A DNA stretch of 64,000 bases from Candidatus Obscuribacterales bacterium (GTDB lineage Bacteria; Cyanobacteriota; Vampirovibrionia; Obscuribacterales; Obscuribacteraceae). A model generated the notes under the pieces. The model saw only the letters and a program-made list of their open reading frames with translations. It had not been told where the DNA came from and did no database searches. Positions 24,935 to 27,509 of the stretch are shown one piece after another. The position numbers and the translations under genes are program-made. Where the stretch lies: contig CBDDIJ010000003.1 of NCBI GenBank assembly GCA_965228855.1, positions 1,312,001-1,376,000 of the forward strand, given 5' to 3'. Within the stretch, counting starts at the first letter, position 1; each line of letters opens with the position of its first letter.

Positions 24935-26065
24935 TTACATTGATTCGATGGCGCGCTGCCTGTCTCGTTTAGCCTTGTCCGGCTGCCCCAGTTTTTCATA
25001 AACCAGAGCACGTTGCCTGTATGTATCGGGAGATGGGAACGCTGAGTTTTCCAGGGCGTTTGTGTAATCCGCAAGTGCCTGAGGGTACTGTTTTGTCGCT
25101 AAATAGCAATCTCCCCGAAAGCGATATGCATCGCTGTTGTCGGTTTCACGCTTTAGTAGTTTCGAGTATAGTGCGATCGCTTCGTCGTACTTCTTGATTT
25201 TGCGAAGCAGGTTTCCGTATCGGTAAACATAACCTACTGCATTTTTCGTCGATTCAAGAGCACGTTCAAAATATTTGCATGCGCGCTCGCCCTCGTTAAG
25301 ATTCTCGAGGCAACTCGCTGCCGACGCATAGGAGCTTGCATCTCCCGGATTATTCTTGATAGCTCTTACGTAGTCTTCGTAAGCATGTTTATAGTCTCCG
25401 GCATAAAAGTAAAGGTTGGCTCGATACTGATAAGCACATGCTGCGCCTGGAAACCGTTTAATGTAATTGTTGTACACCTTCAGTGCTTCTGCGCTCTTGC
25501 CCTTCTTCTCGAGCGCTACAGCGTGCCAGAGATCGTTGTTTTGAAGTACGGTTTTATCGTGATCGCGAGGCAGCCGAGCTTGACTGTACAATTTGCGCAG
25601 AGTAAGGACGATTTTGTCGTCTGTCGGGTCTAGACCGTAAGCATATTCGTAGGCCGCGGCTGCCCTTCGATAATCCTGTCTCGATTTAAAAATATCGCCT
25701 CTGGCATTCGCGGCTGGTTTAAATGCTTGGTTCAGTTGAAGCGCTTTCTGGTAGTCGGCTTCTGCTTTTGCGTACTCTCGTTTTCTGCTGTGCAGTCGAC
25801 CACGAAGTTGATAGACATTGGGATTATTCGGATATCGCTTGAGCAGGGTCTCTATTTCCGCTTCAGCTTTTGAAATCTCTTTGTGATCGAGCAATTTGTC
25901 GCATGTATAGATATCCTGGATTTCCGGATCTGTCAGCACGTCGCCGCGCGCGGACGAAGCGCAAATCAGGTTGCAAGCAATGGACAGTAAGATTGTCTGT
26001 CTTCGTGGGTAAACGTGCATTTTCGTCGACGGAAAGTTTTTCCATCCTAGCACGCGTGTGACCAT
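24935..26065 (-). CDS. TPR repeat protein, probably exported
   Basis: About 8 TPR units (e.g. YQLRGRLHSRKREYAKAEADYQKAL); start uncertain. Confidence 0.85.
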   Translation of the reverse strand: MVTRVLGWKNFPSTKMHVYPRRQTILLSIACNLICASSARGDVLTDPEIQDIYTCDKLLDHKEISKAEAEIETLLKRYPNNPNVYQLRGRLHSRKREYAKAEADYQKALQLNQAFKPAANARGDIFKSRQDYRRAAAAYEYAYGLDPTDDKIVLTLRKLYSQARLPRDHDKTVLQNNDLWHAVALEKKGKSAEALKVYNNYIKRFPGAACAYQYRANLYFYAGDYKHAYEDYVRAIKNNPGDASSYASAASCLENLNEGERACKYFERALESTKNAVGYVYRYGNLLRKIKKYDEAIALYSKLLKRETDNSDAYRFRGDCYLATKQYPQALADYTNALENSAFPSPDTYRQRALVYEKLGQPDKAKRDRQRAIESM

Positions 26066-26079
26066 GACTCGAATGCAAC

Positions 26080-27270
26080 TTAGCCGCCAAAATCCTCGTT
26101 CGCAAACGGGTATGTCTGGGTCAGGATTCGATCGAATCCCAGGTAAGGGTCGTCGAGGTCTGCATGTAGAACTTCGCGATATAGCCAGCCTTTCATATCG
26201 TCCGGTTTGAGCGTCCTGTTTGTCTTGACGAGCGAGTCACGAAGATAGGCGTGAATCAGCGGTCTTCTTTCGGACTCGTTCAAGTCTGAATCAGACTGTA
26301 GCGCCGCGTTTAAAGCCGACCTGGTTGTAGCAGTCGTTTCAAGCGGCACCGCAGGTGGTGAAGACGTACTTGCAAGTACTTTCACCGCAGGGACCAGAGG
26401 AGGCGCCGAAAGGCTGTGATAAGCGATTAGCTTACGGTTCATCTGCTCTGGGTTGGACGTCAAGTCAGCAAATTGGTTCTTGATCAACGAAAGCGCCGAC
26501 AAGTATCGAGATTGACTGTAGATTCCGGGAATTACATCGATCACGCTTCCGTCACTTGTACATATGTACGTGGCAATATTTCCATTCACTGTTCTGGTTA
26601 TTGTTTTTCCCGTTCCAAAATCTATTGTGATTTTCGGAACAGGTCGGACCGAGACCCAGGTCGGTTCAAAGTTCTGGTTTATGTAGTTGGAAACTTCCGG
26701 CGACGAGAACAACACGGTTCTCGCAAGTCTTGCGTTCGTTCAGCAGAAACGATCGTCCAGTGCTCCCATCATGTGAAATACAAGTACCGGTTTGCCTGAT
26801 TTCGACGCACTGTTCATTGCCGCTGTTAAGTCTTTATGCCATGAGACCAGTCCGGGTTTGACCTTGACCATAGCCACTGCCGGCGGTGCTGAAATCGGGA
26901 TGCCGCTATCAAGTTTCTGCAACTCGCCTCTGGTCTCCAGACTTTTAAAAAGATCCGGCGCTGTACTTGTTTTCAGCATCGACTTTAACGGCGCCTCGAT
27001 TCGAATTTTGCTGAAGTCGGGCCTTCGCGGAGCGGCTGGTACATACTCCGATCTGATCATCCGCTTCAGCGGAATTTCGATTGCCGCCTTACTCATGTCC
27101 ATCCGGCGCGTCGTCTTCAGCGTTTGATTTGACAGATTTTGAGCCGATGCTGCAGACATTACGCAAAGTCCCGCAATGAGGGACGCTGCAACAGTCAGGC
27201 AGACACTGGTTGAGGTGCGCCGTGATATCGACGGCTGTTTTGCACGCGACCAATTATCGTTGAGATTCAC
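26080..27270 (-). CDS. Predicted selenoprotein: exported thioredoxin-like protein with SELENON-like C-U motif, 396 aa if UGA 26740-26742 is read as Sec
   Basis: ORFs 26740-27270 and 26080-26715 are in the same frame and read ...GKPVLVFHMMGALDDRFC-TGA-TNARLARTVLFSSPEVSNYINQNFEPTW...; signal peptide; SECIS-like hairpin 3' of the UGA. Confidence 0.85.
26704..26723 (-). promoter_or_regulatory. Candidate bacterial SECIS element
   Basis: mRNA CGAGAAC-CGUGUU-GUUCUCG: perfect 7-bp stem, apical loop 23 nt after the UGA, G at loop position 2 followed by U. Confidence 0.65.
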
Positions 27271-27509
27271 GGTTTAATCCTCTGTCTGCGCCGGAAACGG
27301 ATGACTATGGATGTGCAAATTCAATTCGAGCCATCTGGACCTATTCTGATCAAGTAACGCCGTTTTTGATCTGGTGTAAACCCTGAAGTTCTGCAGGAAG
27401 TTTCCCGGAACTTTTGTGACAGAGCGTAATAATCCCCTTTGCAACTCGCCTTAATGGAAGTATCTTTGATGCTGTAAAAGAGGGGTATCCATGCAACAGG
27501 TCAACGATT

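Follow-up and report, generated by a model that had tools for sequence, protein, structure and literature searches.

The window analysed here, a 64,000-nucleotide stretch from the genome of a Candidatus Obscuribacterales bacterium, carries on its minus strand two open reading frames of 176 aa (26740-27270) and 211 aa (26080-26715) that share one frame and are split by a TGA codon at 26740..26742. When this codon is read through, they form a single gene of 396 aa (26080..27270, minus), running from a GTG start to a TAA stop at 26082-26080, with only one internal TGA, at codon 177, directly after Cys176. A purine-rich stretch resembling a ribosome binding site, recognised by eye, lies 7 nt ahead of the GTG (27278..27283, minus). 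An earlier note on this DNA had described the pair, leaving the strand unstated, and proposed that it hides a selenoprotein related to human selenoprotein N (SELENON). The arrangement was borne out, as were the 396 residues with U177 in the context quoted there, and the pair belongs to the minus strand. The residues around the selenocysteine (Sec) position are F-C-U-T, with Ala three residues past Sec. A TPR-repeat protein gene (24935-26065, minus) begins 14 nt past the stop of the joined gene and may share its transcript; neighbourhood clustering did not reveal a TPR-repeat gene as a conserved neighbour of the family. Repeat, promoter and terminator scans gave nothing over chance.

The TGA is conserved among relatives of the gene. 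Each of the 13 best matches among 41 genomes contains one TGA, always at the site of codon 177, with the frame kept on either side, and Cys occupies this column in all 80 Cys-type loci, which were selected with a Cys-requiring pattern. The genome (8.2 Mb in six contigs) encodes the machinery for Sec incorporation, all of it outside the window: selA (441 bits), selB (above cut-off), a Cys-type selD (372 bits) and a tRNA-Sec with a UCA anticodon (73.5 bits, cut-off 47). Judged from these sequences and from the hairpin described below, the TGA almost certainly encodes Sec, as the earlier note had proposed.

A hairpin of the bacterial SECIS type is predicted at 26703..26724 (minus), +16 to +37 nt downstream of the TGA. 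It has an 8-pair stem and a 6-nt loop whose second base is G, the loop lying 23 nt past the TGA, a folding energy of -10.3 kcal/mol, and all four properties of a bacterial SECIS as restated in the legend to Fig. 2 of PMC13188914. A hairpin was predicted at the same place in 29/34 Sec genes and 0/80 Cys genes; a 30th Sec gene, with a hairpin flagged at another place, was left out of this count. The Arg at the +7 codon is encoded by AGA or AGG in all 34 Sec genes and in five of the 80 Cys genes, compared with 20% genome-wide. Six core pairs are unbroken in 33 of the 34 Sec genes and in 20 of the 24 copies from Planctomycetota, where 0.32 and 0.18, respectively, would be expected if the proteins were recoded with synonymous codons; only 2/80 Cys genes have them. 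Taken alone the hairpin is not unusually stable compared with shuffled sequences (z 0.2 to 0.5 over 48-63 nt, z -1.9 over 31 nt). Its covariation score was matched by 26 of 500 shuffles, and covariation was therefore dropped as independent support; the only double change in the stem is a single event between subfamilies. An Rfam search gave one match, below threshold. Three subfamily A members that encode Cys instead of Sec (L062, L063 and L064) keep five or six of the core pairs and have lost the loop G, as expected if their hairpins are fossils of a SECIS decaying after a Sec-to-Cys change. Their genomes retain selB and most retain TGA copies, which rules out that Cys-reverted copies are confined to genomes that have lost Sec decoding.

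Obscuribacterales are a non-photosynthetic branch of the Cyanobacteriota, and the suggestion that Sec is used in a lineage related to Cyanobacteria proved correct. We found selA in 86/107 Obscuribacterales genomes, which shows routine Sec use in a lineage of Cyanobacteriota; the review PMC9312934, by contrast, names Cyanobacteria among the lineages that seemed to be without Sec. Within the phylum selA is not confined to Obscuribacterales: a sample of 300 genomes from its other members included 23 positives, spread over five other families; none was found in 123 genomes of one family of the same class. A half-protein homologous to the product of the window gene is assigned in NCBI to an Obscuribacterales bacterium.

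Two other genes of the host genome are probable selenoprotein genes. An MsrA gene (G000:C2:2345996, minus) has TGA in frame for its catalytic residue (G-U-F-W-G), a downstream hairpin and an N-terminal hydrophobic segment, and a TlpA/redoxin-like gene (G000:C5:1078754, minus) has an in-frame TGA within U-x-x-C and a hairpin unlike that of the family described here. Two in-house scans of the genome for further selenoproteins were noisy (287 and 260 candidates), each missing known copies, and give no basis for a selenoproteome count. The genome also contains tRNA arrays of about 21 genes (G000:C3:724518-727973) and five genes (C3:1529761-1530653), each on a single strand, with odd anticodons and the look of acquired clusters.

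The protein starts with a probable signal peptide (27142..27270, minus), with a basic start, a hydrophobic segment at about residues 23-41 (hydropathy peak at residue 23) and Ala-x-Ala at 41-43. Homologues have similar N-termini, and from these sequence features the protein is probably exported, in keeping with the earlier suggestion. Two copies of a short K-x-x-I-E-x-P motif follow in the linker, at residues 58-71 (27058..27099, minus) and 85-98 (26977..27018, minus). It was counted 20 times in 18 proteins of subfamily A (0.1 in shuffles), 57 times in 77 Cys-type proteins (0.4 in shuffles) and once in 43 subfamily B proteins.

Residues ~137-271 form a thioredoxin-fold domain (26458..26862, minus), and the remainder is a C-terminal helical extension (26083..26457, minus) common to subfamily A and the Cys-type subfamily. 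The AlphaFold2 prediction for residues 137-396 (pLDDT 83.8) shows a thioredoxin core followed by long helices. The core in the model is beta-alpha-beta / beta-beta-alpha, with Sec just before helix 2, the place of the redox residue in this fold, and its best structural match was 3f9u_B (Z 11.5, rmsd 2.4 over 108 residues); the thioredoxin-like start noticed ahead of the TGA has a counterpart in both the predicted fold and the structural matches. A joint alignment that includes a CxxC thioredoxin of the same genome places Sec opposite the first Cys of that motif. The dithiol pair CxxC/UxxC is absent from the protein, and in the alignment subfamily A lacks the Pro found before the next strand in SELENON and in ordinary thioredoxins. 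The earlier note had also pointed to a C-U redox pair. It is present in the window protein but is not a constant of the family, since Cys precedes the Sec column in 16/18 subfamily A, 0/43 subfamily B and 1/77 subfamily C proteins. PDB sequence searches with the protein and with a profile gave no significant match, and an ESM Atlas search with a Cys homologue returned only unnamed bacterial clusters and thioredoxin folds.

Three subfamilies were distinguished. Subfamily A comprises the 13 best matches among the 41 genomes and includes the type of the window gene. Subfamily B comprises weaker matches with the motif Thr-Sec-Ser-Ala, and has TGA in 21 of 22 loci examined, the remaining locus also carrying TAG. 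Subfamily C is Cys-type, with the motif Ser-Cys-Ala-Asn, and is widespread. The host genome has four Sec copies, one of subfamily A and three of subfamily B (G000:C3:3379891, C3:1903306 and C5:1052858), the latter with the same SECIS register, together with one Sec-less paralogue. This paralogue (L038:1081-2010; G000:C5:354702-355160) belongs to subfamily A, has neither TGA nor signal peptide, and has Glu in the Sec column; degenerate copies akin to it are found in relatives (P0002 and P0052). Besides this paralogue, Ser (P0001) and Glu (P0002) occupy the Sec column, which shows that the fold of the family can persist in a non-catalytic role.

A profile of the A and B cores matched 92 of the 107 Obscuribacterales genomes, with one to eight matches each (274 in all), and all of the 150 matches listed have TGA. 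Presence of the family largely coincides with that of selA: 81 of the 92 family-positive genomes have selA, the counts being of related and not independent genomes, and ten of the 11 that show none are <90% complete. Conversely, the family is missing from six of the seven genomes that are at least 90% complete and show no selA, with one of these seven scored from its absence from the list and the genomes again being kin; five selA-positive genomes lack the family. The sole family match of one near-complete relative (L195, G074:C376) is a 5′-truncated remnant, and selA is matched there only in part (positions 63-227); this genome is possibly in the process of losing the Sec trait.

Outside Obscuribacterales, 87 of 301 sampled Planctomycetota genomes were matched, with TGA in roughly 120 of the 150 listed matches by hand count and in the same column in the best 24 TGA loci. 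The 14 family matches in the 300-genome phylum sample have no stop codon inside. A scan of GTDB loci passed 558 loci, of which 80 were kept, from Planctomycetota, Acidobacteriota, Verrucomicrobiota, Myxococcota and Cyanobacteriota; as its pattern needs Cys, it reports Cys forms and is uninformative on the distribution of Sec. Natural Cys versions occur in the cultured organisms Adhaeretor mobilis (L135) and Pseudanabaena (L130). A profile search of 1.84 billion representatives gave 2901 matches at E <= 0.001; the 150 of these that were listed are nameless, look like bacterial family members, and do not show SELENON. A Planctomycetota gene (L198:1486-2619) with the motif G-C-G-U-N-N, whose C-terminal domain differs and which matches no NCBIfam family, represents a distant further Sec subfamily.

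The likeness to SELENON pointed out in the earlier note stood up in tests with named sequences, at the level of the C-terminal thioredoxin domain; the window protein is not a full-length orthologue. A family profile built without any SELENON sequence matched a SELENON-type profile in hhalign with a probability of 98.3 and an E value of 1.2e-14 over 111 columns. With E values scaled to 1.8e9 sequences, the same profile recovered, at E < 0.001, 17 of 43 records that bear the SELENON name. These 43 were chosen by name from 120 listed, and many are without the Sec residue. In the reverse direction, a profile of SELENON records ranked three family genes at the top of 80,620 reading-frame segments of the host genome; a second SELENON profile gave the same outcome, and no other thioredoxin-fold gene of the genome was picked. 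Direct similarity between the window protein and SELENON is weak (26% over 148 columns, best reciprocal E 0.003), and the alignment is limited to residues 148-286 of the window protein. These profile comparisons make it very probable that the window protein is homologous to the catalytic domain of SELENON, and it is best described as a homologue of that domain outside SELENON proper.

Within the homologous thioredoxin-type domain, Sec lies in the same column in both proteins, with G-x-L-D-D and Cys ahead of it and an Arg four residues past it. The disease variant Arg466Gln, described in PMC12839072 near Sec462 of SELENON, is at the position of this Arg. Both proteins also have a non-cytosolic location, which is a prediction for the window protein, and a coding-region hairpin just after the UGA. 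Unlike SELENON, the window protein has no EF-hand, central domain or type II membrane anchor. EF-hand matches were absent from the window protein and from the bacterial gene L178 (see below), and weak in all three animal-type sequences tested. The domain is central in the window protein and is followed by the helical extension, which SELENON lacks. SELENON has S-C-U-G (PMC12839072) where the window protein has F-C-U-T, so that C-U is kept and the flanks are not. The window gene would be decoded by a bacterial SECIS, whereas SELENON is decoded by a SECIS in its 3′-UTR.

A metagenome motif scan gave 32 loci, of which 29 are animal-type, one is a bacterial full-length gene (L178) and two were dropped as chance frames; one animal-type protein is ~40-43% identical, over most of its length, to records named Selenoprotein N. 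L178 (1170-2393) is a lipoprotein-type gene that matches SELENON over 405 columns (E 4e-42), including the central domain, and encodes S-C-U-G and a lipoprotein-type signal; its bacterial SECIS stem has the sequence and register of subfamily B. It shares the Sec column and the thioredoxin domain with the window gene, but the latter matches the catalytic domain of SELENON only. On this sequence evidence, L178 is a closer, full-length bacterial SELENON. The genes beside L178 have a pilin-type look, and a word-index search with L178 gave two fragments only. A tree built quickly from 55 cores (143 columns) grouped A with C (94), B (95) and SELENON with L178 (98), and that pair weakly with B (84); SELENON does not group with subfamily A, and long branches leave the root unsure. 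No SELENON structure was returned by PDB sequence and fold searches, which do not prove its absence. A Poribacteria homologue of SELENON is reportedly the subject of thesis work, and bacterial relatives of SELENON may not be wholly new.

SELENON genes contain a Sec redefinition element (SRE), described for SELENON in PMC12839072, and the animal-type genes have a long hairpin at approximately +7 to +45. In 21 of 22 distinct animal-type sequences the hairpins close at pair sums of 50-53 past the UGA, the bacterial SECIS having 53 and the two axes almost coinciding. Positions 22-31 pair in 22/22, and 19-34 is C-G in 18/22 and A-U in bacteria. The conserved part of the SRE is, however, an outer 11-pair stem that is absent from bacteria, and no more than 5/21 have all five of the inner pairs (0.55 expected), several of the bases being fixed by the protein. 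An origin of SREs from bacterial SECIS elements was proposed for SPS genes by Mariotti et al. 2015 (PMC4561486). It is conceivable, though we hold it to be doubtful, that animal SELENON was drawn from the present bacterial superfamily and that its SRE descends from a bacterial SECIS acquired along with the gene. If so, the hypothesis of Mariotti et al. 2015, as put forward in PMC4561486, would gain a test on the best-studied SRE, and multi-copy SELENON-domain proteins would be a main reason that Obscuribacterales keep Sec decoding.

The family was also compared with known thioredoxin-like selenoproteins. NF041199 (Trx7/PDZ), NF041382, NF041383 (VPGUxxT), Trx-like Sec.1 and Sec.2, and the TlpA/redoxin types share with it the thioredoxin fold, a UGA-encoded Sec and a coding-region SECIS. 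Against the three NCBIfam families (NF041199, NF041382 and NF041383) the window family scores 11-19 bits, where the cut-offs are 275-350, and the matches cover the first strand and helix only. The motifs of the catalogued types (CxxU, VPGU, CxU, UxC and UxxC) include neither C-U-T-N nor T-U-S-A in Table 1 of PMC13188914, and this table, a 2026 inventory of 119 prokaryotic families, has no SELENON-like entry. No family in Pfam or NCBIfam 20.0 was over cut-off for 1 + 12 + 10 proteins; the window protein scores 16.7 bits with Pfam Thioredoxin_7 (cut-off 27). The Thioredoxin_7 / DsbD-gamma / DsbH / AGR2-ERp18 group provides the best structural matches of both the window and the SELENON-type domains (3f9u, 2lst, 3ira, 7tkv and 2ju5), from which the window protein differs in lacking CxxC and in carrying both a hairpin insertion and a long extension of helices. 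None of the papers listed by literature searches describes, in title or abstract, a SELENON homologue from bacteria or the use of Sec by Obscuribacterales, and BSepDB records could hold members. The family is real but uncatalogued, and is apparently a large missing part of the bacterial selenoproteome that gene callers cut in half.

Taking these results together, we give a probability of about 0.85 to the reading that the locus is one gene for an exported selenoprotein, decoded through a SECIS element and serving as a thiol/disulfide reductase or isomerase of the cell envelope that works with a single selenol. Recognition of a downstream hairpin by SelB is the standard route of bacterial Sec insertion. 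When the ribosome arrives at codon 177, Sec-tRNA would be supplied by SelB attached to the hairpin at +16 to +37, translation would continue, and the product would leave the cytoplasm by means of its N-terminal signal. The thioredoxin-fold domain would then offer Sec, standing where a CxxC has its attacking Cys but unaccompanied by the second Cys three residues on, to disulfides or thiols of partner proteins; resolution might be by the neighbouring Cys176 in subfamily A and by an outside thiol in the others. The envelope role is suggested by the fold, the position of the motif and the reported redox role of SELENON in the lumen of the endoplasmic reticulum, to which the envelope is the bacterial counterpart. 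Reductase activity towards partner proteins and calcium sensing by SELENON are reported in PMC12839072. From the model and by this analogy, we lean towards an oxidoreductase over a pure sensor or binder. Both the chemistry and the substrates of SELENON, which causes a congenital myopathy, are still poorly understood. Bacterial homologues that are small and probably soluble, natural Cys ones included, open its catalytic domain to structural and mechanistic work.

The strongest competing explanation accepts the selenoprotein but makes it a sensor or binder of redox state or metal(loid)s, with the K-x-x-I-E-x-P motif or the helical extension relaying the state of Sec to a partner. The missing CxxC partner Cys, the persistence of Ser and Glu copies and the abundance of the motif, far above shuffles, in subfamily A and the Cys-type proteins would all suit such a role, but the motif is missing from subfamily B and Sec occupies the catalytic position of the fold. 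An OmpR-like response regulator gene adjoins 25 of 91 Cys-type loci (L065-L127, mostly Pirellulales), apparently with a sensor kinase; this neighbour is present at only 1/18 subfamily A and 0/32 subfamily B loci. Clustering of flanks of ~1.5 kb, in the 16 largest clusters, gave no conserved partner for the Sec copies, and many clusters are antisense frames of the gene itself. We regard a sensor or binder as unlikely, if worth keeping in mind.

Less probable still, at long odds, is that the protein is a peroxidase or sulfenic-acid scavenger that acts on small oxidants and not on protein disulfides. Peroxidases also use a lone Sec on a thioredoxin fold, and several copies per genome would fit with such a function. 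The structural neighbours of the domain, however, are DsbD-gamma, DsbH, AGR and Thioredoxin_7-type proteins and not peroxiredoxins or glutathione peroxidases, and Pfam gave no match to either of the latter.

The two remaining alternatives concern the codon itself, and both are far less credible than an envelope reductase or isomerase containing Sec. Reading of the TGA as Trp, Gly or Cys, by an alternative code or leaky read-through, might be suggested by three database proteins of the family with Trp at the Sec position (P0045, P0048 and P0049), which probably reflect gene callers reading TGA as Trp. This is very hard to reconcile with the remaining data: TGA terminates 988 of 3138 long open reading frames in the host genome and is therefore a stop by default, as in the standard code; the sole UCA-anticodon tRNA found there is tRNA-Sec; and the homologues without TGA hold Cys in the column. 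The possibility that the TGA is a real stop, in a pseudogene, by sequencing error or between two genes, can be set aside: a GTG start does lie 25 nt past it (26715) and databases do store the halves as separate proteins, the split that the earlier note had foreseen, but it would cut the thioredoxin fold at the active site, and two phyla retain TGA at this site, with neither TAA nor TAG ever in its place, together with a hairpin conserved at the codon level. With regard to a misread TGC, TGT or TGG, contigs of three public runs from two studies, among which the source data may be, cover codon 177 and agree on TGA with no letter differing.
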